Assembly (NCBI GenBank): GCA_964354495.1
Contig: CAYHAA010000001.1
Span: 248,075 to 280,074 of the forward strand
Reading direction: 5' to 3'
Length of the DNA stretch: 32,000 nt
Source: an uncultured archaeon
Lineage (GTDB): Archaea > Asgardarchaeota > Thorarchaeia > Thorarchaeales > Thorarchaeaceae
Numbering within the stretch: the stretch's first letter is position 1; each line of letters begins with the position of its first letter. The position numbers and the translations under genes were made by a program. The notes under the pieces were generated by a model, which saw only the letters and a list, made by a program, of their open reading frames with translations, was not told the DNA's origin and did no database searches. Below, one piece after another: positions 871 to 12,922 of the stretch.

Positions 871-2055
871 ATGCCATCAACGCTCGAGCGGACAAAGTGC
901 GAACAAGCTTCCGGACTCCTGAAAGAGCTTGATCTCGACTGCTGGCTCGTGTGGGTCCGAGAGACCTCACAGATGGCAGATCCCGTACTGGCTCTGGTCT
1001 TGGGAGGCGACTTGGTATGGCAGTCTGCTCTCATTTTTGCGAGATCAGGTGAGAAACTCGCCATCGTTGGCAACTTTGACGCAGGAGACCTCGAAGCGCG
1101 AGGAATCTATGACCAGGTCATCCCATATACCAAAGGAATGAAGGATGCCTTGGTGGCTGAATTGAATCGCATCAATCCACAACAGATTGGCATCAACTTC
1201 AGTACTGATGATGTCTCAGCAGATGGCATGACTTTGGGAATGCACCTGCTTCTGAAGGACTATCTCAAAGAGACCCCGTATATCGACAGGCTTGTTTCAG
1301 CCGAGAGGCTTGTTCAATGCTTACGAGGTAGAAAGACTGCTGAAGAGGTTAGCCTTGTGCAGAAGGCTGTAAGCATCACAGAAGAGATATTTCAGAGAGC
1401 CGAGCGCTTTGTGAGACCCGGCCAGACTGAACTCGAGATCTATAGCTTCTTCCATGATGAGATGAAGAAACACAATGTGACAAATGCATGGAATGAAGAT
1501 CATAATCCCGCGGTCGATGCTGGCCCGAACAAGCAATTCGGGCATGCTGGGCCTACTGACAATATCACCAAGTCCGGCCATCTGCTTCATTTTGACTTCG
1601 GGGTTCGTCACGGAGGATATTGCTCTGATATCCAGAGAATGTTCTTCTTCGGGACTACGAAGGACATTCCATCTGAAATTCGTGATGCATTTGCAGCTGT
1701 TCGCGGCGCAATAATCGTGTCTTCCAAGTTCCTAAGACCCGGTAGACTTGGCTACGAGGTCGATGCAATTGCGCGGGACTTTGTGACAGCTGCTGGATAT
1801 GAGGAGTATCAGCATGCCTTGGGGCATCAGATTGGTAGGCACGCGCATGATGGCGGTGTTCTCCTGGGCCCCCAATGGGAGAGATACGGCGAATCTGTCA
1901 TGGGTCCTGTTGAAGCAGGCAACATATTCACTCTGGAACTATATGTTACAACCAGAGACTATGGTCAGGTCAGTCTTGAGGAAGATGTCTTGGCCACGAA
2001 GTCTGGCTGTGAATTCCTATCTAATCCCCAGAAACGACTGATCTGTATACGTTAG
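871..2055 (+). CDS. M24 family Xaa-Pro aminopeptidase/prolidase
   Basis: N-terminal creatinase-like domain, then a pita-bread domain with all five metal ligands: HFDFG, YCSDIQR, HALGHQIG, TLEL and SLEED. Lies 19 bp downstream of the ADH gene on the same strand. Confidence 0.92.
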   Translation: MPSTLERTKCEQASGLLKELDLDCWLVWVRETSQMADPVLALVLGGDLVWQSALIFARSGEKLAIVGNFDAGDLEARGIYDQVIPYTKGMKDALVAELNRINPQQIGINFSTDDVSADGMTLGMHLLLKDYLKETPYIDRLVSAERLVQCLRGRKTAEEVSLVQKAVSITEEIFQRAERFVRPGQTELEIYSFFHDEMKKHNVTNAWNEDHNPAVDAGPNKQFGHAGPTDNITKSGHLLHFDFGVRHGGYCSDIQRMFFFGTTKDIPSEIRDAFAAVRGAIIVSSKFLRPGRLGYEVDAIARDFVTAAGYEEYQHALGHQIGRHAHDGGVLLGPQWERYGESVMGPVEAGNIFTLELYVTTRDYGQVSLEEDVLATKSGCEFLSNPQKRLICIR

Positions 2056-2222: not shown

Positions 2223-4061
2223 TCATGACATATACGGGTCTTCATGCACATCAATATCGGCATACCCTGCGTCTTTAAGAAGGTCCTCGATCGATTCGGC
2301 TCCGGTAATCCAAGAGATTCCCCAGGTGTTGTCATCTTTCAGACGCAGTTCGACATCCGGGAGGTCTCCAAGCAGGTTATGGTCCATCTCAATGGCATCT
2401 TGGTATGCTCCGACCAGGGGGATTACGAAGCAAGACCCTGGAATGTCGTTCAGCACTCCCACGGGAATCCCTTTGCCTGCCTTTCCTCCTGGCATGGTGA
2501 CTGGTCTGTTGTCCCTAGTGAACCATATCTTCTCTGTGTGCTGTCTATAGAAATCTGCTATTTCGCCATCTGAATCGCATGTGATATCGACTAATCTCAC
2601 AGTGCTCTGCGGTTGAATGTGCAAGTCACGAGTCGGAATGACCGGGAAGTACTGTTGAACCAGTACATGGTCAGCAATGCTGTTGAATACGCTGAAGTTC
2701 CCAATGACGATGTGTTCAGGATACCAGAAACTTCTCTCCATCTTATCAGACGAATAGGTCGGAAGGTTCATCTCCCTCAGTTTGGCTCTGACTGCTGTTT
2801 CCAGTTTTCCAACGACCATTTCTCTCTCGTGTATGGCTCTGAGTCCCGCAAGAGTCATTCCTCCAAAGCGCTCATGGAATTCGTTCCAGAGACTGACCAT
2901 ATCTTCGAGTGTGTTGGCATTGTGGATTCTCGCCTGATAGTCCTGCTCAGCCAGAGCGATTTCCGATTCACATGCGTCACCGGGTGCAGGAAAGACCGAT
3001 CTGAGTTCGAGCGCTTGAACAACAATGAGTGCTGCAAGGGCAGTAACAGCGCGCCCTGACTCTATCATGATGTTAGGCTCTGGATGCCTGTTGGAATCTC
3101 TCTCGATCTGTGCTCTTATTCCGGACACAATATTGTGGGCGTACTGATACATCAGGTCTGGGGGATAGGAGCCAGTATAGTCGATTGCTAGGCCTCCACC
3201 GAAGTCTATGTTCTCCAAGTTTGATAGTCCCATCTCCCGGAGTTCAGAATAGAGTTTGGTCAGGAAGCTGCCGAATCTTGTGAATGCATCAAGGCCGGTA
3301 ATCTGTGACCCTGCATGGCCAAGAATCGATTTGACTGACCCCGCAAAACCTGTTTGCTTCAGCAATTCAACAACATTGTAGAGGTCCTGAATACTGAGAC
3401 CGAATTTTGAATCTCGTCCCGTTGAATGGGACCAATGCCCCTCAACATTGAGGTATGGTTTAATACGTAGTATCAAGTGTGTCTTTTGAGGTTTGAAATG
3501 TTTGACGACCAGTCGCGCCTCCTGTACTGATTCAACCGAGATTCCGATATTCCATCCACTATCCATGCTCGTTTGAATCAGTTTGAGGTACTTCGGATCC
3601 TTTGTGCCATTACAGACAATTTGGCGGTGTTTTTCATTTTCTGTCAACTTCTTAATCAGGAGCAATTCTGGCTTGGTACCTGCCTCAAGGCCGTACTCCG
3701 AATCGGTTCTGATGACGGCCGTAACGAAATCCCTGCGTTGGTTGACTTTAACAGGATAGATTCCAATGAATTTTCCCCTGTATCCCAATTCATCAAAGAC
3801 TCTCTCAAACGATGCCTTGAGTTTTTTAACCTGATAGGTGATTAGTTGAGGCATACGGAGTGTGAAAGACGAAGCATATCCAGTCCCATTTCCATTCATG
3901 TCATTGACATTTCGGACTAGTTCCTGAACTGTGATCCTCTGCTCACCTAGCTTGATACATAAATCACCGTCATCGGTGATATCAAGGAAATGGAGGTCAT
4001 TTCTACCCACACCAAATACGGTCTTCGACTTCTCAGCTGACCACGACTCTTCTGTCATCAT
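2223..4061 (-). CDS. speA: Biosynthetic PLP-dependent arginine decarboxylase (fold type III, SpeA-type)
   Basis: Motifs YPVKVNQ (PLP Lys), EAGTKPEL, CNGTKD, HAGSQI, IDFGGGL, ESGRA, FSVFNSIADH, DITCDSDG and GAYQD. The length of 612 aa matches SpeA rather than the shorter LysA/ODC. Start is ATG 4061 or 4058. Confidence 0.88.
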   Translation of the reverse strand: MMTEESWSAEKSKTVFGVGRNDLHFLDITDDGDLCIKLGEQRITVQELVRNVNDMNGNGTGYASSFTLRMPQLITYQVKKLKASFERVFDELGYRGKFIGIYPVKVNQRRDFVTAVIRTDSEYGLEAGTKPELLLIKKLTENEKHRQIVCNGTKDPKYLKLIQTSMDSGWNIGISVESVQEARLVVKHFKPQKTHLILRIKPYLNVEGHWSHSTGRDSKFGLSIQDLYNVVELLKQTGFAGSVKSILGHAGSQITGLDAFTRFGSFLTKLYSELREMGLSNLENIDFGGGLAIDYTGSYPPDLMYQYAHNIVSGIRAQIERDSNRHPEPNIMIESGRAVTALAALIVVQALELRSVFPAPGDACESEIALAEQDYQARIHNANTLEDMVSLWNEFHERFGGMTLAGLRAIHEREMVVGKLETAVRAKLREMNLPTYSSDKMERSFWYPEHIVIGNFSVFNSIADHVLVQQYFPVIPTRDLHIQPQSTVRLVDITCDSDGEIADFYRQHTEKIWFTRDNRPVTMPGGKAGKGIPVGVLNDIPGSCFVIPLVGAYQDAIEMDHNLLGDLPDVELRLKDDNTWGISWITGAESIEDLLKDAGYADIDVHEDPYMS

Positions 4062-4090
4062 TCTTGCCCCTTGGTTGCTAGATGAAGATA

Positions 4091-5551
4091 CTACAGCCCT
4101 TCGTCCTCTTTAATTGAATCTAACATGCCTTGGAATGCGCGTGCCAACTCGCCAATCTCATCGTCTTTCGAAATATACGATTGGTCTACCTGCAAGTCTT
4201 GAGTATCAAGCGGCTGATCTCTGATTCTTGCAGCCGCATTCCTTGTGGCAAGATCCATGAGATATTGCAGCGGCCGCGTCACAGTGTTTGACACCGAGAC
4301 CGCAACGATTCCTGCTATGATGATGCCTGCGACTGTCACAAAGAGAATGAAGGCTGCAGCTTGGGCATTAGCAGCAAGTATTCTCTGTTCGAGGGGAGGA
4401 ATGGCCTCCAGAACTTCATCAAGAGGAACTGCGATTGCGCAGATGTAGTTTCCCTTCCCTACAGGAGTGTAGACCAAGATACGTTCAGTGCCATCCCGAG
4501 TGTACCTTAGGGCTCCGGATGCGTCTGGAACAATCATTGTATCAATCTGCGATTGAAGAAGGGCTGGGCTATCATCTTCGTTCACTTCAATATTCACGAG
4601 CTCGGGCAGTCCTCCTATGTACGCTGTGTCCGGCACCTCAGGATGTGCCACCACAAGTCCGTCGGAGTCGATCAGGAATGCATAGCCTGATTCGAGGACT
4701 TGGACATCAATTACCTTTGAACGGATGTCCTCGATTGTGATGTCTCCTGAGATGACTGCTTTCGGTTGATAATTCCAATACACAACCTTTCCGATTGAAA
4801 TCAGGAGCACATCATCAAACTCGTCGTAATATGGTTCTACGAAGACAGTTTCGCCATCGCCTTCCCATATATCGTTGTACCAGTCCTCGCCTCTTGGGTC
4901 ATATGGATCTGATGTTCTTTCTGAATCAGTTCCTGCAAGAATGCTACCTGGATAGTTGATGAACAATCCATCGTCAGCAAACGCGATATAGAGCCATCTG
5001 AATTCAACTTGGTCATGAATCGCCTTGAAGATGTAGTCCATATTAGAGACGCGACCAAGCTTGTCACCGCTTATAGGATCAGATTCATAGTCATCGTAGT
5101 TCGTTGAGTCCGTACCTGAAACGTACCAGCTACTATATGTCCAGGATACATTGAGTCCATAGTTGTCGTCATACGCACTATCTGCTGGATCCGGTGCGAC
5201 TGTGTCATTTTCAAACAGAAGGTCGTAGTAGACGATTCGATTGGCATAGGTTGAATCACTATCGAACAATGCCTGCAATTCCTCAGCTGCCGCCTCGATC
5301 ATTCCCTGTGCGCTCGACAACTTCTGATGAATCACCAATGCTGTCTTCTGAGCTGTCTGTTCCATATTTGACTGAATCTGGGTTTCTAGTGCCAGTGAGC
5401 TTTGGTCTCTTGTGAATCCGCCTATGATATCTACAAAGGTCAGGGAAACGAATCCGGTCACTGAGAGAGAAACCAATGAAATCACCAAGAAGGTGAGAAT
5501 CACGTTTGTTCGGAACTTTCCTTTTTTCTTGGTCTGAGTTGGGTGTGACAT
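4091..5551 (-). CDS. Membrane sensor: TM - extracellular dCache-like domain - TM - HAMP, with no output domain
   Basis: TM1 VILTFLVISLVSLSVTGFVSLTFV. Cache-type motifs WLYIAF, FINYPG, YDPRGEDWY, VEPYYD, ISGDIT and GYAFLIDSDGLVVAHP. TM2 AAAFILFVTVAGIIIAGIVAVSVS. HAMP VTRPLQYL...DEIGELARAFQGML, then a stop about 9 aa later. A strong SD (AAGGAGG) overlaps the upstream stop codon. Confidence 0.85.
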   Translation of the reverse strand: MSHPTQTKKKGKFRTNVILTFLVISLVSLSVTGFVSLTFVDIIGGFTRDQSSLALETQIQSNMEQTAQKTALVIHQKLSSAQGMIEAAAEELQALFDSDSTYANRIVYYDLLFENDTVAPDPADSAYDDNYGLNVSWTYSSWYVSGTDSTNYDDYESDPISGDKLGRVSNMDYIFKAIHDQVEFRWLYIAFADDGLFINYPGSILAGTDSERTSDPYDPRGEDWYNDIWEGDGETVFVEPYYDEFDDVLLISIGKVVYWNYQPKAVISGDITIEDIRSKVIDVQVLESGYAFLIDSDGLVVAHPEVPDTAYIGGLPELVNIEVNEDDSPALLQSQIDTMIVPDASGALRYTRDGTERILVYTPVGKGNYICAIAVPLDEVLEAIPPLEQRILAANAQAAAFILFVTVAGIIIAGIVAVSVSNTVTRPLQYLMDLATRNAAARIRDQPLDTQDLQVDQSYISKDDEIGELARAFQGMLDSIKEDEGL

Positions 5552-5567
5552 CTCTTCATCTACCTCC

Positions 5568-8426
5568 TTAGTAATCTACAGTTGTTCCTCCTACTTCGAG
5601 CTGTGCCATCAGCACACCTACTTTGTCAAAGGCCTTCTCGATGTCCATGTGAACATCGATACTATCGACCACTGACAAGTATTGTCCCTGTGGGATGTTG
5701 TTACAGATTGACTCAAGGAGTTCCTCAGTGGTCATCTGTTGTCCCGTCTTGGGTGAGCGCGCTCTCTTTCCATCAACTGCTGCCTTCAACTCCTCACCAA
5801 CGCCGATCACTATGAGATTCACATCAAGATGGTTATCACGGATGAATCCCTCAATCGTCAGCTTTCTCCTTCTCTTCAGACGGTCATTCTGCGTGAATAT
5901 GCCTTCTAGCGCATCGAGAGAATATGTCTTTGAGCTGTTGTCCTGACCATCCGACAGTGCAATGACCCACCGATGCTCGCTCGACTCTATCTTGTTTAAT
6001 TCCTCTAGAGCCCGACCCAATGCGTCGTAGAACGCAGTTGCATAATTGGGATACTTCAGAGCATCAAGAGCTCGAACAATAGGGCTCTCGTCTTCGCTGA
6101 ATTCACCCTTGAGAGTGAGGGGCAGAACCTCGCGATATGTGGTATTGAAGATTATGATCGACACAGCATCCTGCGGATTCACCTGGCTATGGAGTATTTC
6201 TCTTGCTCCGGTAACAGCTGCCTTGATTCTCTGCTGGGCCTGCATGCTACCTGAGTAGTCGATCACAAAGGTAACGCTCTTCTTGTACAGAATGGAGCGC
6301 CTGAGTTTCTCAGCTTTCCTTCGAACATCATGACTCGGTTTGTTCAACTGGTCTAGAACATCGGCAAGCCGCTGCATGGCGAAGACGACGAGCCACAATT
6401 CATCTGTTGCCTCTCCAAGCTTGATTGCATCACTGTAGGACTTCTCGGCCTTTTTCCAGTTGCCTTGAACCTGAAACAGCTCACCTTCGTGATAGCTGAT
6501 GTAAGCCAAGCTTCTCTCATAGTTGATGGATCTTGCAGTCTCTTCTGCCTCACTGAAACGAGACTGGGCTTGACTGTATCTGCCATCCTTCATGAGAACA
6601 AGTCCCATAGCATCATAACGTCTGGCCAGGCCATAGGTATTCTTTTGCGTCATGTCAATGGCTTGGGCATCTTCAAGTAGCTTCATTGCAGCCTCAAAAT
6701 TGCCACGGTCCATCTCCACGAGCGCCATGTTGTGATAGATAGAAGCGATTCGGGTCATTGCATCCTTCTCATCGGTGCCGTCTTCCTTTGCCCTTTCGAG
6801 TAGCTTGTTCGAGATAGTCAGTGACTGGCCATAATAGTCCATGGCATTCGCTGTTTCACCACGCTGTCGGAAGACATTCCCAATGTTCAGCAGCATTGTC
6901 TGTTCTCCCGCTTCAATCTTCAACCTTCGGCTGATCTCTAGCAGATTCTCATAGTTGGCAAGTGCTCTCCTGAGGTCTCCGCGTATGAATGCTTGATTTC
7001 CGAAACGCATTGCCTCTTGGAAGCTTAGCAGAGCATCGACTGTGGTCCCTACTTCTTCGTACATTGCTCCTGCAGTCGTTACACCTCTTGTGAAGTCTTG
7101 TCGAGCCATCTTCTGTACTAGACGGGTCATCTCGGTTATTGGTTCGACCACAGCTCTTCCTCGTCTGGTTGAAACAACCGATACAACACCTGCTACAACA
7201 ACCAAGATGCCACCAAGGGCTGCAGTAAGGATGAGCGTTCGAGTGGCCACAAGATTGAGAATATCCATTGCTGGTGCAATGACATCAGATTCCGGTACTA
7301 CCACAGCTAGTATGTAATTAGTGCCCTTGACCTGTACAAATGCCATATGCCAGGTGTTGGCATTCTTTTGATACTCAAGTAGTCCTGACTCTTCGCCAAT
7401 TACCTGCGTCGTCAACAGACTCCTGAACGCTATAGCTTCCGAACTTGTCGTGCTTCCAAACTCAAGTACCTCAATGGGTGCGACCTCTTCGTCCAAGGAT
7501 TGGTCCTTGTGGGCAACAACATTTGCAGAAGTGTCCAGCATGAAGGCATACCCATTCGTTGAAACATTCAAATTCAATACTCTATCAAGTACTGTTGCCA
7601 TTGTGACGTCTGCTGACACAACACCAATGAGAGAGCCATTATCGAATCTCACGGGTCTGCCCATTGATATGACCAGACCAACTGGGTCGACATAGGGTGC
7701 AGTAAGAATGACGCTGTCATTGCTTGGTGCGATAGTAGCCACATTTGTGTACCATTCTTGTGCATTAGCATCATAGTCTAGGCCCAGTCCATCATAATCA
7801 ACAAAATAGCTCAAGTCATCAAAGGGATAGTTCTTGAAGAGATGCTGGTCAGAGACTCCTAGATCATATCCCATATACAGCCACTTGTAGTCCTCATTCA
7901 TCTCGTGAAGTGCTTTGAAGATGTTAATCATATTCGACGAGGAGTCTAGGGCGACCTGAGTGCTTGCAGAGAAGTCGCGTGGGTCGTTGTTGTTCCATTC
8001 AGAGCGTGGAATGAAGTAGCAATCGGCTGCAAAGGAGATGAACTCTGATTCATAGGCTTCGATGATCTCGTCATCTGTTTCGAATGTACCCGAAAGATCT
8101 GACCATTGAGGCTCTTCACTAGCGTTCCAATAATAGCTATACTGTGGAGTTGCTGAGATTCTGCCATTGAATAGATCTTCACAATACGCCTCCAACATGT
8201 ACACTCCATCAATATAGCTCTTCCACCTCTCCTCAATGAAGAGCGCCGTGTCATTTGAGAGTCTCTGGAGGTTTGCCAATTCCTCGTCCTTCAATGCCGC
8301 AGCAGCATCTCCTGCATTGGCATTTGAAACTGCGAATATCTCGCCCACTGACAGAGCTGAGATTACCAACATCGGCACGAGTGCGACGACCACAAACGTG
8401 ACAACGATCCTTCTTGAGATGTCCAT
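5568..8426 (-). CDS. Membrane sensor: TM - dCache-like - TM - HAMP - TPR repeats - vWA domain
   Basis: TM1 at about aa 7-30. Cache motifs WLYMG, FKNYP, YDANAQEWY, TAPYVDP, VVSADVT and GYAFMLD. TM2 near aa 400-422, then HAMP VEPITEM...EEVGTTVDAL. About 5-6 TPR-like repeats follow (e.g. LLNIGNVFRQRGETANAMDYY, YHNMALVEMDRGNFEAAMKLL). The vWA domain has an intact MIDAS: FVIDYSGSM, ATAFYDAL, LSDGQDN. Confidence 0.85.
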   Translation of the reverse strand: MDISRRIVVTFVVVALVPMLVISALSVGEIFAVSNANAGDAAAALKDEELANLQRLSNDTALFIEERWKSYIDGVYMLEAYCEDLFNGRISATPQYSYYWNASEEPQWSDLSGTFETDDEIIEAYESEFISFAADCYFIPRSEWNNNDPRDFSASTQVALDSSSNMINIFKALHEMNEDYKWLYMGYDLGVSDQHLFKNYPFDDLSYFVDYDGLGLDYDANAQEWYTNVATIAPSNDSVILTAPYVDPVGLVISMGRPVRFDNGSLIGVVSADVTMATVLDRVLNLNVSTNGYAFMLDTSANVVAHKDQSLDEEVAPIEVLEFGSTTSSEAIAFRSLLTTQVIGEESGLLEYQKNANTWHMAFVQVKGTNYILAVVVPESDVIAPAMDILNLVATRTLILTAALGGILVVVAGVVSVVSTRRGRAVVEPITEMTRLVQKMARQDFTRGVTTAGAMYEEVGTTVDALLSFQEAMRFGNQAFIRGDLRRALANYENLLEISRRLKIEAGEQTMLLNIGNVFRQRGETANAMDYYGQSLTISNKLLERAKEDGTDEKDAMTRIASIYHNMALVEMDRGNFEAAMKLLEDAQAIDMTQKNTYGLARRYDAMGLVLMKDGRYSQAQSRFSEAEETARSINYERSLAYISYHEGELFQVQGNWKKAEKSYSDAIKLGEATDELWLVVFAMQRLADVLDQLNKPSHDVRRKAEKLRRSILYKKSVTFVIDYSGSMQAQQRIKAAVTGAREILHSQVNPQDAVSIIIFNTTYREVLPLTLKGEFSEDESPIVRALDALKYPNYATAFYDALGRALEELNKIESSEHRWVIALSDGQDNSSKTYSLDALEGIFTQNDRLKRRRKLTIEGFIRDNHLDVNLIVIGVGEELKAAVDGKRARSPKTGQQMTTEELLESICNNIPQGQYLSVVDSIDVHMDIEKAFDKVGVLMAQLEVGGTTVDY

Positions 8427-8490: not shown

Positions 8491-9945
8491 CTACCCTGTT
8501 TGAGCCCTTAATTCCTCGATTAGCTTACCGACAAAGTACTCCATATCGGTCTTTTCACTTGGAAAGAATCGCTCTCCCTCTAGTGTCCCTTGAACGATGC
8601 CCTCACCAAGAAGGATTATCAGTGTCCTCCGGAGTATAGTTCGGTCTACACCCGTCTGCCTCTCCATGCGGGCGACATCCACACTATCAGTCTCTTTGAG
8701 CAGATTCAGTAATGTTGTTTCGATATTGTGGATATCTTTCTCTTCAACCTTGACCGACTTCTTACGCTTCTTGAACTCTGTCCTGACAAAGGTGCTGCCA
8801 TCTAGATGTCCGTCAATGGCTTCGCTCTTAATCATTGCCTGCAGGCTCCTGCGCAGGTTATAGGCAGCAGGTCTGGGGAGTGTCCTTCGAAGTATCCTAT
8901 CCAGCTCCTTCAACTTGATCTGGTTGTGCTTTGAGGTGATTGAATCAATGCTCTCCTGGATGTATTCCTCAATTACGTATTCTTCAATCAACTGAAGAGG
9001 TGCTCCGCAAGCTGCACACTCCGATGCTTCTGGCGACGTTGGAGCTCCACAGTTGCCGCACTTTATTGCCCTGCGATATAGTATCTCCTTGGTTGAGCCG
9101 ATTTGCTGAAGAATCACTCTTTCGCTTCTCGATGCCTTCCCTGACTGCTCAACTTCCCAGAAGCTAAGTCTGTTGTCTTTCGTGCTCACTACAAGGTATG
9201 CAATATCTGAGATCTCATCAGGCACGCCTGTTGCCATGGCGCGTGGAACATCGCTCTCCTCAATCTGTGCAATCTCATTGCCGTCAATGTCCCAGATTCG
9301 GAGAGTGGAGGTCATATCACCGGTAACGAAGAGCTTCCTGTCTTCGAACGACAGCACTGCAAAGACTGTAATCTTGTCGCCTAGTTGAAGTTCACGCAAG
9401 AAATACCCTGCAGAGGTCAGTATGCTCACTTTCCCGGTCATCTCTGCAATGACAACCTCAAGTTCATTATCAGTCGTGATGTCCTCAAGCCAGACATCTG
9501 ATATAGGTTGACTCACGTTCCTTGTGAAAATTGCATCCTTGTCATCGTTATACAGGATGACTCTGTTGTTCTCCAGAGCGACAACGACTTCAGCTGCATC
9601 GTCGCCATCGACATCCCGGGCATCGCAGGCAACTACATCGCTCTCAAGGTTGATGTTCCAGACTGTGCTACCTCGATGATCCACAACGAGGACCTTCTTG
9701 CCGACGCCGCCCACCAGTGAATCTTGGCCTTCTCCTTCAACATCTGCGACAGCTATGCATCTGACCTTGCTGCTCCATTTGCGCGTACTCGTGAGAGCAC
9801 CCTTTGCATCGAAGACACGAAGCCTGTCGCCATAATCTAGCGAGAAGACCTGCGTGCTAGCGTCCCTTTTCTGTCTGACGTAGACCGAGTATACATTTGA
9901 CACTGTGGGTACACTCGCAACCTCGCGAATCTTCAAGCCGCTCAT
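8491..9945 (-). CDS. Hypothetical protein: FG-GAP-like beta-propeller + Zn ribbon + two winged-helix (PCI-like) domains
   Basis: Repeats AVADVEGEGQDSLVGG, ARDVDGDDAAEVVVA and LEDITTDNELEVVIA; CGNCG...CAACG Zn ribbon; two C-terminal segments ending MIKSEAIDGHLDG and LLGEGIVQGTLEG. The track start at 10134 overlaps the opposite-strand deacetylase gene, so ATG 9945 (MSGLKIREV) is preferred. Confidence 0.65.
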   Translation of the reverse strand: MSGLKIREVASVPTVSNVYSVYVRQKRDASTQVFSLDYGDRLRVFDAKGALTSTRKWSSKVRCIAVADVEGEGQDSLVGGVGKKVLVVDHRGSTVWNINLESDVVACDARDVDGDDAAEVVVALENNRVILYNDDKDAIFTRNVSQPISDVWLEDITTDNELEVVIAEMTGKVSILTSAGYFLRELQLGDKITVFAVLSFEDRKLFVTGDMTSTLRIWDIDGNEIAQIEESDVPRAMATGVPDEISDIAYLVVSTKDNRLSFWEVEQSGKASRSERVILQQIGSTKEILYRRAIKCGNCGAPTSPEASECAACGAPLQLIEEYVIEEYIQESIDSITSKHNQIKLKELDRILRRTLPRPAAYNLRRSLQAMIKSEAIDGHLDGSTFVRTEFKKRKKSVKVEEKDIHNIETTLLNLLKETDSVDVARMERQTGVDRTILRRTLIILLGEGIVQGTLEGERFFPSEKTDMEYFVGKLIEELRAQTG

Positions 9946-10002
9946 AGCACCTTCTTGAGCATTGTTGCATATCCATATAAGTTTGCTAGGACTCCAAGGA
10001 CG

Positions 10003-11082
10003 ATGATGAGAGAACCTGCCAAATGCAGTGTCGGCTTTCTTTGGAGCCCACTTCTCGAAACCTTTGACTTTGGAAAGAAACATCCTATTCAAGTGGGACG
10101 CTTCAAGATGATACATGACTTTGTGGAAGAGCAAGGCTTCCTCGATCTACCCGACGTCCGAGTCATCACTCCTGAACCATTGCCTGAGGATCTCTTGAGA
10201 GTCATTCATGCTGAGAGTTATATAGAGAAGGTTCGGAGGATTTCTGAATCTGGTGTCGGCGAGATTGACATCGACACGCCCGGATTCAAGGGGATTTACA
10301 CCAATGCACGAATTGTCTCTGGTGCATCGGTCACGGGAGTCAAAGCAGTTCTATCAGGTGAAATAAACCACTTTGTTTCACCCACGGGCGGGTTCCATCA
10401 TGCTATGTATGAACACGGCGGAGGTTTCTGCATCTTCAACGATGTCGCAGCCTGCGTCTATGAACTGAAACAGAGAGGTGTTGAGAGAGTCCTCATAGCT
10501 GATTTCGACGTACACCATGGGAATGGAACTCAGGAGTATTTCTATGACGACTCTGGCGTGATGCAGATTTCCTTTCATGAGGACCCTGAGTGGATGTATC
10601 CTCATGATGGTTTTATTGAAGACATTGGAGTAGGACCAGGTCTCGGATTTAACGTCAACATGCCCTTTCCAATGGACTCTGGCGATGCAGTTTACAGGTA
10701 TGCCTTCGATAGACTAGTACCCAAGCTAATTCACTATTACAGCCCTCAGTTCATCCTGTTCATTCCTGGCTTCGACGCGCACTACTTGGACAGACTTGCT
10801 CACCTCAAACTGACCACTGATATGACTCGCCATATCACGTCAGAGATTCATAGAGCTGCTCATGATTACTGCGATGGGAAGATGGGCGTTATGACTGGGG
10901 GTGGGTATCACCCCGATTCTCTACTGTGGGGCATCGGAACTGTGATATCAGAGCTCTCCGGAGCTCCCTATGACCCCCCTCCACAGACACCTCCATTCAA
11001 AGACGACAGGGAGACGTGGGATGAGGTAAAGTCGAATGTTGCCAGAGTGGAGGAATTGGTCTTCCCGATTCTTGGTATATAG
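10003..11082 (+). CDS. Histone deacetylase superfamily Zn-dependent deacetylase (AcuC/HDAC-like)
   Basis: Motifs HPIQVGRF, GGFHHA, GFCIFND, DFDVHHGNGTQ, GFDAHYLD and GGGY (catalytic Tyr) are all intact. ATG 10003/10006 preceded by AAGGA is preferred over track start 9955. Confidence 0.92.
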   Translation: MMREPAKCSVGFLWSPLLETFDFGKKHPIQVGRFKMIHDFVEEQGFLDLPDVRVITPEPLPEDLLRVIHAESYIEKVRRISESGVGEIDIDTPGFKGIYTNARIVSGASVTGVKAVLSGEINHFVSPTGGFHHAMYEHGGGFCIFNDVAACVYELKQRGVERVLIADFDVHHGNGTQEYFYDDSGVMQISFHEDPEWMYPHDGFIEDIGVGPGLGFNVNMPFPMDSGDAVYRYAFDRLVPKLIHYYSPQFILFIPGFDAHYLDRLAHLKLTTDMTRHITSEIHRAAHDYCDGKMGVMTGGGYHPDSLLWGIGTVISELSGAPYDPPPQTPPFKDDRETWDEVKSNVARVEELVFPILGI

Positions 11083-11084
11083 CC

Positions 11085-11741
11085 TCAGTCTGTTTCTGCA
11101 ATCAATCTGCGTGCCAAATCTACTGCGCTCATTGCATCCTTCCCAAACGCATCTGCGCCAGTGTAGTCCACAATGCTCTGATCAATGTCTCCCCCGCCAA
11201 TCATGACCTTCACTTTTTTCCTCATGCCTGCCTGTTTGAGCGCAGCTATGGTCTTCTTCATGACGTCATGTGTCGTCGTAATCAGACCACTCAGGGCGAG
11301 AACCTTAGCATCTGTTTCTCTCAATTTCTCAATGAACTTCTCGGGTGGGACGTCTTCGCCAAGGTCATGGACTTCAAAACCATTGGACTTCAAAAAGGCG
11401 ACAACGAGGTTCTTTCCGATATAATGTATATCTCCTTGTACAGTGCCGATCACAATCTTTCCGCTATAGCTCGACTTCTGAGATGAGAGAAGGGCCGGCT
11501 CGAGCTTCTTCATTGCTCGTTTGAATACATCCGCTGACATGACGAGCTCTACGAGAAAATACTCATTCTTGGAGAATCTTTCACCAACTATGTCCATTCC
11601 TTCCTTGAGTTGGCCAAGAATCGTGTGGGGGTCAATACGGCCTGAAATGTACTTTTCAACAAGACGAAGTACCTTTTTGTCATCGATGTCTGCCATAGCT
11701 GTTACAAGTTCCTTCACTTCATTTGATGCCTCCAGATGCAA
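11085..11741 (-). CDS. Methyltransferase corrinoid (B12-binding) protein, MtaC/MtbC/MtgC-like
   Basis: N-terminal cap domain (LKEGMDIVGERF...YFLVELVMSA), DxHxxG cobalamin motif GTVQGDIHYIGKNLV, then DLGEDVP, LSGL and MIGGG. TTG start with an AGGTG SD. Confidence 0.92.
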   Translation of the reverse strand: MHLEASNEVKELVTAMADIDDKKVLRLVEKYISGRIDPHTILGQLKEGMDIVGERFSKNEYFLVELVMSADVFKRAMKKLEPALLSSQKSSYSGKIVIGTVQGDIHYIGKNLVVAFLKSNGFEVHDLGEDVPPEKFIEKLRETDAKVLALSGLITTTHDVMKKTIAALKQAGMRKKVKVMIGGGDIDQSIVDYTGADAFGKDAMSAVDLARRLIAETD

Positions 11742-11770
11742 TTTAGGACACCTGTGAGTAAGAACAGCGT

Positions 11771-11785
11771 ATCATATATCTTTCC
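11771..11785 (-). promoter_or_regulatory. Putative archaeal BRE/TATA promoter of the corrinoid gene
   Basis: The minus strand reads GGAAAG-ATATATGAT, a purine-rich BRE-like block followed by a TATA-like box, about 33 bp upstream of the start at 11741. Confidence 0.5.
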
Positions 11786-11873
11786 TCATACTAACGCAGT
11801 TGAATCAAGAGACATGCCCTCAGAATTCTCGTGGGAAGCCAGGTAGAAATGCCTTGCTTCTCTGGCTATTCTC

Positions 11874-12008
11874 TCAGCTCTGACCCTGCTTGCCAAAGAC
11901 AGACGTAATCCTCTTGCACCTTCTCATGACGCATCCAGAATCATGCACGATACATCTGCCGCGGCTCGTAAGCCCGATGGTTCCGAATACTACGACGCGT
12001 TTTGGCAT
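11874..12008 (-). CDS. Possible small protein (44 aa, three Cys), absent from the ORF track
   Basis: ATG 8 bp after the mtrH stop. Translates as MPKRVVVFGTIGLTSRGRCIVHDSGCVMRRCKRITSVFGKQGQS*. No homolog recognised. Confidence 0.3.
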   Translation of the reverse strand: MPKRVVVFGTIGLTSRGRCIVHDSGCVMRRCKRITSVFGKQGQS

Positions 12009-12016
12009 ATGATTAC

Positions 12017-12922
12017 CTATCCAATCCTGAATCTTGGATGCTGCCTGTCCGGTCTAATGCCTTCCTCTAGAAAAACGCCTGACAGTGCAGTGTCGATCAT
12101 CGCGATCGATGGAAATACAATTGATGCGTGCTTGATTGGGCCATAGAGTATAAAGTCAGCTCCAAGCACGACAGGCATGAGACTGGAACCAACAAGGGCT
12201 GCATCTCTGGCTTCCTTACCGAACTTTGGTACAAGTCCGACCCATGTATTCACTGCATTATGAGCTCCGCACCCTACAGGATATCCCAACTTGCCTTTTG
12301 CATGTTGCAGAGCCTTGCTAGCAATACCAAGAGTCAGCATGTCTACGACACCCGTGTCAATCATTATGTTCTGAATTCCGATAGTCAGAGACCTATTTAG
12401 CAGGTCTTCTGCAATCCTAAGCCTCTTCTTCGAAGAAGCCATGGACTCGCTGTCAAAGGCCAGAACTACTGCGTTCTTCAGTCCCAGTCCGTGCATTTCC
12501 TCGAGGGTGCTAGGATCAGTTTCCGGAACTATTGAGTTGAGTACAACCCGTTCCATTATTCCAAGCTCAGAAGCTCTCTCCAATCCAGCCAGATTCACTT
12601 CATTAGAACCTGATCCGTCGATAAGCAGAGGCATCTCTGTGATATTAGAGAGAAATGAAATGTACTCTCTCATGGCATCTGGCGTGGCTCCGACGACATC
12701 CAGCATACTGGGGAGACCGGTGGCATCAGATATCTTCGAGAGCTGTTCGAGGGCCTGTTCTACCTCGGCTCTCTGTACTGTCCCCTTCTTGGGATCCTGC
12801 ACAAGCTTATCCTTGACGTAAAAAATGGAACCAATAAGGACTGTTGGAGTCAGCCCGGGCTGTCCACCAATTTTGATACCACCTATTTCCAATGTCTTCT
12901 GAGATGTCGAGTAGTGATACAC
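12017..12922 (-). CDS. mtrH: MtrH/MtgA-family pterin (H4MPT/H4F) methyltransferase
   Basis: N-terminus QKTLEIGGIKIGGQPG..PTVLIGSIFY is typical of MtrH; also PLLIDGS, GCGAHNAV and GADFILYGPI. GTG 12922 preceded by AGGAGA gives the usual MtrH N-terminus; the track start at 12997 is probably too long. Confidence 0.88.
   Translation of the reverse strand: MYHYSTSQKTLEIGGIKIGGQPGLTPTVLIGSIFYVKDKLVQDPKKGTVQRAEVEQALEQLSKISDATGLPSMLDVVGATPDAMREYISFLSNITEMPLLIDGSGSNEVNLAGLERASELGIMERVVLNSIVPETDPSTLEEMHGLGLKNAVVLAFDSESMASSKKRLRIAEDLLNRSLTIGIQNIMIDTGVVDMLTLGIASKALQHAKGKLGYPVGCGAHNAVNTWVGLVPKFGKEARDAALVGSSLMPVVLGADFILYGPIKHASIVFPSIAMIDTALSGVFLEEGIRPDRQHPRFRIG

Follow-up and report, generated by a model that had tools for sequence, protein, structure and literature searches.

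Among the known systems closest to the two receptors considered here are the bacterial dCache_1-HAMP chemoreceptors PctA, PctB and PctC of Pseudomonas aeruginosa and Mlp24 and Mlp37 of Vibrio. The N terminus of these proteins is cytoplasmic, and the chain passes through a transmembrane (TM) helix into an extracellular dCache_1 domain and returns through a second TM helix to a HAMP domain. Chemoreceptors of the PctA type are homodimers and signal to CheA through a methyl-accepting chemotaxis protein (MCP) domain; prokaryotic transmembrane receptors are known to terminate either in an enzyme or in a signalling domain for chemotaxis. The same input is encoded by two adjacent genes, called below the long and the short receptor gene, in a 32,000-nt stretch of the genome of an uncultured Thorarchaeaceae archaeon (contig CAYHAA010000001.1; this stretch is referred to as the window, and all positions are those of the window). 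In this pair, however, the input is followed by tetratricopeptide repeats (TPR) and a vWA domain, the neighbour is an obligate paralog, and one residue of the PctA ligand pocket, R126, is replaced. A module of four genes, c1-long-short-speA, has this pair as its core and is a putative operon in this genome. As a receptor module it is real, deeply conserved and not described until now, and its anatomy, linkage and predicted adaptor are well supported. We give a probability of roughly 55% to its being an Asgard-wide signalling module with a heteromeric receptor, an amine ligand, an output by protein contact through the TPR-vWA region and c1, and a polyamine-related target. The heteromer, the amine ligand, the function of the vWA metal site and the link to speA are those parts of this description that we infer by reasoning.

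Several other systems share parts of this design. The amine-sensing dCache_1AM receptors PctD, McpX and PacA (PMC10589655) descend from the amino-acid sensor and have likewise lost its carboxylate-binding arginine while the aromatic residues and the aspartate are kept; unlike the window pair, they have a kinase, MCP, GGDEF or PP2C domain as output. The alpha2delta subunits of calcium channels and CACHD1 also combine a dCache_1 domain and a vWA domain with a metal ion-dependent adhesion site (MIDAS) in one polypeptide. The vWA domain of alpha2delta is inserted into the Cache domain and is extracellular, whereas that of the long receptor (aa 716-945) is C-terminal and cytoplasmic and follows TM2, HAMP and the TPRs; alpha2delta has neither HAMP nor TPR. 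CadC and LysP, a membrane sensor and its co-sensor encoded beside a lysine decarboxylase gene and subject to feedback by the amine product, offer a functional analogy only; the families are unrelated, and CadC is itself the DNA-binding output. The obligate heterodimers GABA-B and T1R, in which two paralogous sensors are present and one is coupled to the output, are also no more than analogs: their folds are unrelated, and the heterodimerisation of the window pair is a deduction.

The four genes follow each other on the minus strand in the order c1 (8491-9945), long receptor (5568-8426, 952 aa), short receptor (4091-5551, 486 aa) and speA (2223-4061), with intergenic gaps of 64, 16 and 29 nt, the last of these separating the short gene from the speA start downstream of it. 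The source genome has 3.30 Mb and is 97.7% complete. The gene c1 codes for a propeller/Zn-ribbon protein, recognized by Pfam matches, its AlphaFold model and its linkage, and speA for a pyridoxal phosphate-dependent arginine decarboxylase, recognized with NCBIfam. Both receptor genes were defined by their open reading frames (ORFs), Pfam and ortholog alignments and, in the case of the long one, also by a model. The initial annotation of this locus had described a tight coupling of the two receptor genes, and re-reading of the junction (5552-5570, minus strand) bears this out. The letters are ...TAC TAA GGAGG, 11 nt, ATG: the TAA of the long gene lies within the Shine-Dalgarno sequence AAGGAGG of the short gene, and 16 nt separate it from the short-gene ATG.

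The long receptor is composed of TM1, dCache_1, TM2, HAMP, five TPRs, a capping helix and a vWA domain. Pfam, the ortholog alignment and the AlphaFold model (mean predicted local distance difference test score, pLDDT, 81.5) agree on this architecture, the essentials of which, dCache-HAMP-TPR-vWA, had been proposed from the letters of the DNA. Judged from their sequences, the long and the short protein are both N-in membrane receptors with an extracellular dCache_1 domain and a cytoplasmic HAMP domain; the TM helices and the topology were read by eye from the hydrophobic stretches at about 7-29 and 396-420 and the flanking Arg and Lys residues. The ectodomain of the long receptor (aa 30-395; 7242-8339, minus strand) was assigned with Pfam, alignments to PctA and PctB in the PDB and the pocket columns. 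It scores 28.7-30.5 bits with MCP-like_PDC_1, above the cut-off of 27, and 38.7-40.8 bits with dCache_1, under the cut-off of 45, and all 20 orthologs match dCache_1 (best 1.9e-22). A profile of the ectodomain finds solved dCache structures with E values of 1e-17 to 1e-22, and PctA-type chemoreceptors are among the best single-sequence PDB matches. The HAMP domain is divergent (aa 421-481; 6984-7166, minus strand) and has no Pfam match in this copy of the protein. Three observations support its assignment: orthologs match Pfam HAMP in the corresponding place (L028 with 37.8 bits, L034 with 32.2 bits), the alignment contains the canonical pattern P-I..L....GDLS...E[IV]..L..AF, and the model has two helices there, 421-441 and 457-481, which continue into the first TPR.

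The TPR array (aa 485-693; 6348-6974, minus strand) scores 61.6 bits with TPR_12 (cut-off 30.1) and is of the scaffold type, with profile matches to GPSM2 (LGN), Pins and kinesin light chain (KLC). The earlier estimate of five to six repeats holds for the lower number: the model has five helix pairs, with pLDDT values of 85-97, and a capping helix (aa 699-712). The end of the last TPR helix together with the capping helix (aa 689-712, including H699; 6291-6362, minus strand) is the predicted docking site of c1, as judged from the interface residues. The cytoplasmic vWA domain (aa 716-945; 5592-6281, minus strand) scores 48.1 bits with VWA_2 and 33.3 bits with VWA and has an alpha/beta fold in the model. 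Its MIDAS was expected to be intact, and all five metal-site residues, D723-x-S725-x-S727, T797 and D826, are present and do not vary among 20 orthologs, the identity of which falls as low as 26%. When the single sequence of the vWA region was searched against the PDB, no match had E <= 0.01; a profile search was needed to find ITIH4, CLCA1, ANTXR2 and the vWA structures of BatA/BatB (4jdu, 3ibs). In a fold search of the Atlas with the cytoplasmic arm, only its own cluster exceeded a template modelling score of 0.5.

Pfam and NCBIfam scans detected no kinase, MCP, cyclase or phosphatase domain in either protein, and neither HisKA/HATPase, GGDEF/EAL nor PP2C after the HAMP domain. The pair has no enzymatic output, as had been said of the first protein, and only the long protein has a cytoplasmic arm. 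All cytoplasmic parts of the system (TPR, vWA and the propeller partner) are protein-binding, which is what a membrane-anchored scaffold for assembly or trafficking would look like. Such a scaffold could be a BatA/BatB-like protein or a receptor-adaptor platform, with the Cache domain serving surface contact or stability. BatA and BatB, from the Bacteroides aerotolerance operon, are likewise membrane-anchored, contain vWA and TPR, and are found by the vWA profile, and the propeller of c1 is similar, although only generically, to scaffolds of the BBSome, KICSTOR and WD40 kinds. The Bat proteins, however, have another domain order and topology, lack Cache and HAMP, and accompany MoxR and DUF58 genes, neither of which is present among the module neighbours. 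Furthermore, a signal converter, the HAMP domain, separates TM2 from the TPR array and is conserved in this place, and the pocket residues are strongly conserved. A scaffold without a receptor function is thus quite improbable.

The short receptor consists of TM1, dCache_1 (aa 41-395; 68.9 bits, cut-off 45; 6e-19), TM2 and HAMP (aa 423-481; 25.8 bits, cut-off 25) and has no output domain. The early stop seen initially is real, but it lies 5 residues past the Pfam HAMP match, not about 9. The two genes are paralogs, as had been supposed: the proteins are 27% identical across residues 14-420 (E 2e-29). The orthologs of the short protein are natively 477-497 aa long and, except in the Hermod lineage, have no extra domain. 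The possibility that the short gene is a truncated pseudogene, cut down from an output-bearing protein, is ruled out by these lengths. In this genome, the long and the short protein are the only dCache_1 proteins, the short protein is the sole one with a Pfam-detectable HAMP domain, and Pfam finds no MCP signalling domain. Archaeal Cache domains have been reported almost only from Methanomicrobia (Galperin 2018).

Two variations of the short protein were observed. In Hermodarchaeota, its length is 583-665 aa, and its C-terminal part consists of a Zn ribbon with HEAT repeats (L019:293-2290; L020, L089, L090, L100). The genomes with this long-tailed form have no c1, and their long receptor lacks H699; the Hermodarchaeal short protein may have taken over the adaptor role. 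In family f11 (Hod- and Heimdallarchaeal; L015-L018), the short C termini have a conserved acidic Trp motif, D-D-S-F-W-D/E, which resembles the W-acidic peptides bound by kinesin-light-chain TPRs. This tail could contact the KLC-type TPRs of the long receptor.

The association of the two genes is ancient. Close homologs of the long protein number 166 and are 940-963 aa long; among 400 genomes searched, at least nine Asgard families contain matches over the full length. In a set of 20 diverse loci, the long and the short gene are always adjacent on the same strand and 2-16 nt apart (19 of 19 in the tally). A second, independent set comprised 80 species, of which 75 loci were scored (Thor- and Heimdallarchaeota, Hodarchaeum, Hermodarchaeota, Lokiarchaeum ossiferum B35 and Promethearchaeum). 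Here the genes are adjacent, again with gaps of 2-16 nt, in 64 loci, and the remaining 11 are contig ends or artefacts of the ORF start. This set was retrieved with one narrow peptide pattern, and its all-Asgard outcome is no evidence of absence in bacteria. In both sets together, about 95 loci, the pair is adjacent wherever the contig allows, in Thor-, Heimdall-, Hod-, Hermod- and Lokiarchaeal genomes alike; linkage in relatives, on which the reading of the pair as a system depended, is thereby established. The sole apparent exception is a Thorarchaeota chromosome (L055; CP070658.1, G368:C1:196731-199577), in which the long gene has an internal TAA and the best short-type match is about 180 kb off. 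In a maximum-likelihood tree, the long and the short sensor modules are split by a branch with 100/99 support and have mirrored topologies. Because of this split and the mirrored topologies, the phylogeny places the duplication before the separation of the Thor, Heimdall, Hod, Hermod and Loki lineages, with both copies retained since. We found no literature describing the Cache-HAMP-TPR-vWA architecture, in line with its not having been recognized as a described system, although this is weak evidence because subscription journals were mostly uncovered. A cultured organism, Lokiarchaeum ossiferum B35 (CP104013.1), carries the module, which is therefore experimentally accessible.

The conserved pairing bears on the quaternary structure. 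Cache-HAMP receptors are normally homodimers, and the long receptor might signal alone through two TPR-vWA arms, the short one being a decoy, a sink or a bare-HAMP signaller. Both pockets are conserved in most lineages, the Hermodarchaeal short paralog has an arm of its own and so can carry an output, and a Cache-less variant of the long protein works without the short partner, all of which is compatible with separate homodimers. They are nevertheless unlikely in view of the strict adjacency, the short gaps and the mirrored trees Asgard-wide, and the genome contains no other detectable HAMP or MCP protein that could be the partner of the short receptor. The pockets of family f22, where that of the long protein has decayed while that of the short one is intact, would also be odd for an independent long receptor; they fit a division of labour between the subunits of a heteromer. 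The Cache-less variant occurs in about ten f22 genomes. It has 578 aa with two TM helices, HAMP, TPR and vWA, and it adjoins a c1-type propeller gene (L034:8054-9790 and 10409-12238).

The ligand pocket was mapped by PDB alignments to PctA and PctB. The amino-acid motif of Gumerov et al. 2022 (PMC8915833) consists, in PctA numbering, of Y121, R126, W128, Y129, Y144 and D173, of which Y121, R126 and W128 bind the carboxylate and Y144 and D173 the amine of the ligand. In the window, the long pocket has Y121, Q (Q223 of the protein) in place of R126, W128, Y129, Y144 and D173, and the short pocket has Y, E (E222 of the protein) in place of R126, W, Y, Y and D. Thus, five of the six positions, common to the pair and the PctA-type receptors, are kept in both proteins, and the dCache_1AA motif is incomplete because of the replacement of R126. 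Among the 75 species, the long pocket reads Y-E-W-Y-Y-D in 47, the R126 position being mostly Glu, and the short pocket follows the pattern aromatic-[E/D/Q]-[W/F]-Y-Y-D. Arg is found at this position of both proteins only in Loki genomes and Promethearchaeum, where the amino-acid motif is complete and the locus contains no speA. The carboxylate of the ligand is bound by R126, a residue typically lost from amine sensors (PMC8915833, PMC10589655), in which it is not conserved (Cerna-Vargas et al. 2023, PMC10589655). The amine-sensor motif, in PctD, comprises R103, D133, W155, F188, M215, S217 and D235 and an upstream insertion (PMC10589655); our comparison covered the loss of R126 and the shared positions (the aromatic pair and the Asp). 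With the Arg of the carboxylate site replaced by Gln or Glu and speA next door, the pocket suggests agmatine or a related polyamine as the best guess for the ligand in Thorarchaeota. In Lokiarchaeum, where the motif is complete, the ligand would be an amino acid.

The SpeA protein matches NCBIfam PRK05354 with 4e-103 and 346 bits, just below the cut-off of 369. The gene is present in a single copy, and no second arginine decarboxylase, of the pyruvoyl type or otherwise, was detected in this genome; an arginase/agmatinase-family gene lies elsewhere. Among the 75 loci, 53 contain speA, in four gene arrangements. The gene is downstream of the pair in Thorarchaeota and in Heimdallarchaeal family f13, divergent and upstream in f11 and f8, and absent from the Loki and f22 loci. 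The change from Arg to an acidic residue at the R126 position accompanies the speA linkage in most lineages. This correlation, together with the retention of speA beside the pair through four arrangements, argues against a general amino-acid or nutrient sensor with an incidental speA neighbourhood and an output unrelated to polyamines. The complete amino-acid motif in Lokiarchaeum, Promethearchaeum and the protist homologs described below, the lack of speA in the Loki and f22 loci, and the single copy of speA, which is probably essential, would be expected of such a sensor. On balance, we regard it as a doubtful alternative to an amine receptor acting on polyamine metabolism.

The protein encoded by c1 is cytoplasmic and consists of a 6-bladed beta-propeller (aa 1-267), a Zn ribbon (about 295-316) and winged-helix-like domains (342-387 and 402-462); the AlphaFold model has a pLDDT of 79.6. 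The Pfam matches to propeller, FG-GAP and Zn-ribbon families are weak. An integrin-alpha-type propeller is defined by a match to FG-GAP/VCBS repeats and seven blades with Ca-binding loops, and c1 matches FG-GAP_3 with E 0.013, under the cut-off, and is modelled with six blades. Fold searches returned generic propellers (NHL, WD40, BBS2/9 of the BBSome, KICSTOR), from which no family could be named. The gene is present in 59 of the 75 loci, in varying place and orientation: it shares the strand of the pair in Thorarchaeota, where it lies upstream, and in Loki and f22 genomes, where it lies downstream, and it is convergent in f11. That the linkage survives such rearrangement points to a functional tie of both c1 and speA to the pair.

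The complex of c1 with the cytoplasmic arm (aa 465-952) was predicted from alignments in matched genome order. The interface score (interaction prediction score from aligned errors, ipSAE) is 0.75, compared with 0.00 for the best of three controls; in the calibration, 58 of 80 solved complexes attained this mark, as did 2 of 110 mismatched pairs, although the calibration holds only roughly for a score obtained with custom 14-row alignments. Three runs agree in at least 88% of the contacts, and the pLDDT of the partner is at least 77. In the predicted complex, residues 689-710 of the long receptor contact several blades on one face of the propeller, and the interface includes the invariant H699 of the long protein and Y19 of c1, which is one of three invariant c1 residues. 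H699 is present in 64 of 75 orthologs. It occurs together with c1 in 59 loci, both are missing in 11, all of which have another residue in place of H699, and the five mismatches are all truncated contigs; five genomes without H699 (84-90% complete) contain no full-length c1. The c1-less lineages occupy two separate positions in the tree, so that c1 was lost at least twice independently. The model and the covariation support, but do not show, binding of c1 to the helix that links the TPR array and the vWA domain, and with this partner the output by protein recruitment, which had been proposed on the basis of the domains, gains support. A pairing of the vWA domain with the propeller by way of the MIDAS, in the manner of integrins, was considered and set aside, as the predicted contact is made by the linker helix.

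By combining these observations, it is possible to outline how the module would work. The long and the short receptor would associate through their Cache, TM and HAMP regions into one sensing platform with the TPR-vWA arm. In Thorarchaeota, the platform would bind a cationic amine that lacks an alpha-carboxylate, the most plausible candidates being agmatine or a related polyamine. The HAMP domain would then relay the signal into the directly fused TPR array, and the output would be a change of protein-protein contacts, with one face of the c1 propeller docking on the TPR-vWA helix. The MIDAS may hold a second, acidic ligand. The downstream target would probably be agmatine or polyamine homeostasis by way of speA, reached through the winged-helix domains of c1 or by scaffolding.

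Several points weigh against this description, in addition to the approximate calibration of the complex score. The Cache-less variant keeps c1 without a short partner, and the arm can therefore work without Cache. Four families that keep the pair (Hermodarchaeal f14, f8, Heimdallarchaeal f13 and f10) are without c1, which is hence not essential to the core. The winged-helix domains of c1 are specific to Thorarchaeota, making a conserved role of c1 as a transcription factor unlikely. The predicted c1 contact avoids the MIDAS and would leave the role of the vWA domain unexplained. Archaea need agmatine for the agmatidine of tRNA-Ile, and as speA encodes the only arginine decarboxylase detected here, it may be a housekeeping gene that is loosely linked to the receptors. 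Finally, the dCache_1AM motif has been found within archaea only in Halobacteriota (PMC10589655).

Relatives of the long receptor exist outside Asgard archaea. A profile of the long ectodomain found 205 clusters at E <= 1e-30 among 1.84 billion representatives. Three clusters of EukProt transcriptomes have the full TM-dCache-TM-HAMP-TPR-vWA architecture (Platysulcus tardus, Stygiella incarcerata and one further set; P0392, P0479, P0505/P0513). The Stygiella incarcerata homolog is 25% identical to the long receptor in an end-to-end alignment (E 7e-63), and the amino-acid motif is complete in the protist homologs. None of ten sampled short-type representatives is eukaryotic. The AlphaFold DB clusters A0BS51, A0A482RWD0, A0A1R2BNA1 and Q23RC3 align over the whole TPR-vWA arm with E values of 1e-19 to 4e-15; we take A0BS51, A0A1R2BNA1 and Q23RC3 to be ciliate proteins. 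A relative of 1570 aa (L115:10001-14713) is encoded on an ORFan-rich 32-kb contig that looks viral (giant-virus-like).

In the PDB, the best match of the ectodomain profile is alpha2delta-1 (2e-22), ahead of bacterial chemoreceptors with close bit scores. The match consists of two colinear stretches on either side of the inserted vWA domain of alpha2delta, and VWA_N is matched in 5 of 20 Asgard ectodomains. Other Asgard genomes (f11, f10 and f9, some of them of the Heimdall group) encode proteins of about 600 aa with VWA_N, vWA and the C-terminal part of Cache, which is the layout of alpha2delta and CACHD1. In this form, a MIDAS vWA domain lies within the distal module of dCache_1, and a plain Cache paralog of 444 aa is encoded next to it in a tandem pair (L119:1402-3189 and 3111-4445; L122:1396-3234 and 3231-4565). 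A fused form of 993 aa (L116:1416-4397) is located on a compact, prokaryote-like contig. No inserted-vWA form was found in the genome of the window. Gumerov et al. 2022 make no mention of Asgard archaea and place the vWA insertion at the stage of the last common ancestor of eukaryotes (LECA), with a transfer from bacteria (PMC8915833). A different origin, by which the receptor and its inserted-vWA sister first appeared in Asgard archaea and eukaryotes inherited them by vertical descent, the protist homologs and alpha2delta/CACHD1 being their descendants, is a tentative and rather unlikely proposal. If it were true, the combination of Cache and vWA would predate LECA, contrary to a bacterial transfer at that point (PMC8915833). 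The tree described above covers the long and short sensor modules of Asgard archaea.

The surroundings of the module contain an HDAC-like gene, an M24 peptidase gene and a gene for a B12-binding protein. The first of these belongs to the histone deacetylase/acetylpolyamine amidohydrolase family, is divergent from c1 (9955-11082, plus strand; its start is likely near 10011) and could represent a further polyamine link. The M24 peptidase gene lies beyond speA (871-2055, plus strand). Both are kept beside the module in Thorarchaeota only. Sequence reading tentatively identifies TTATAT at 9975-9980 (minus strand), about 32 nt upstream of the c1 ATG, as a possible archaeal TATA box.

The module joins a standard Cache-HAMP input to pure protein-docking modules, includes an obligate paralog with a sensor only and a soluble adaptor that is predicted, and seems to represent a mode of transmembrane signalling that has not been described. 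It bears on the control of agmatine synthesis, the only detected enzyme for which is encoded next door in this genome, and on the origin of the Cache-vWA combination in the alpha2delta subunits of calcium channels. The module is conserved in the archaea that are closest to eukaryotes; if it does function by ligand-controlled recruitment, these archaea would possess a receptor-adaptor logic that is more typical of eukaryotes.

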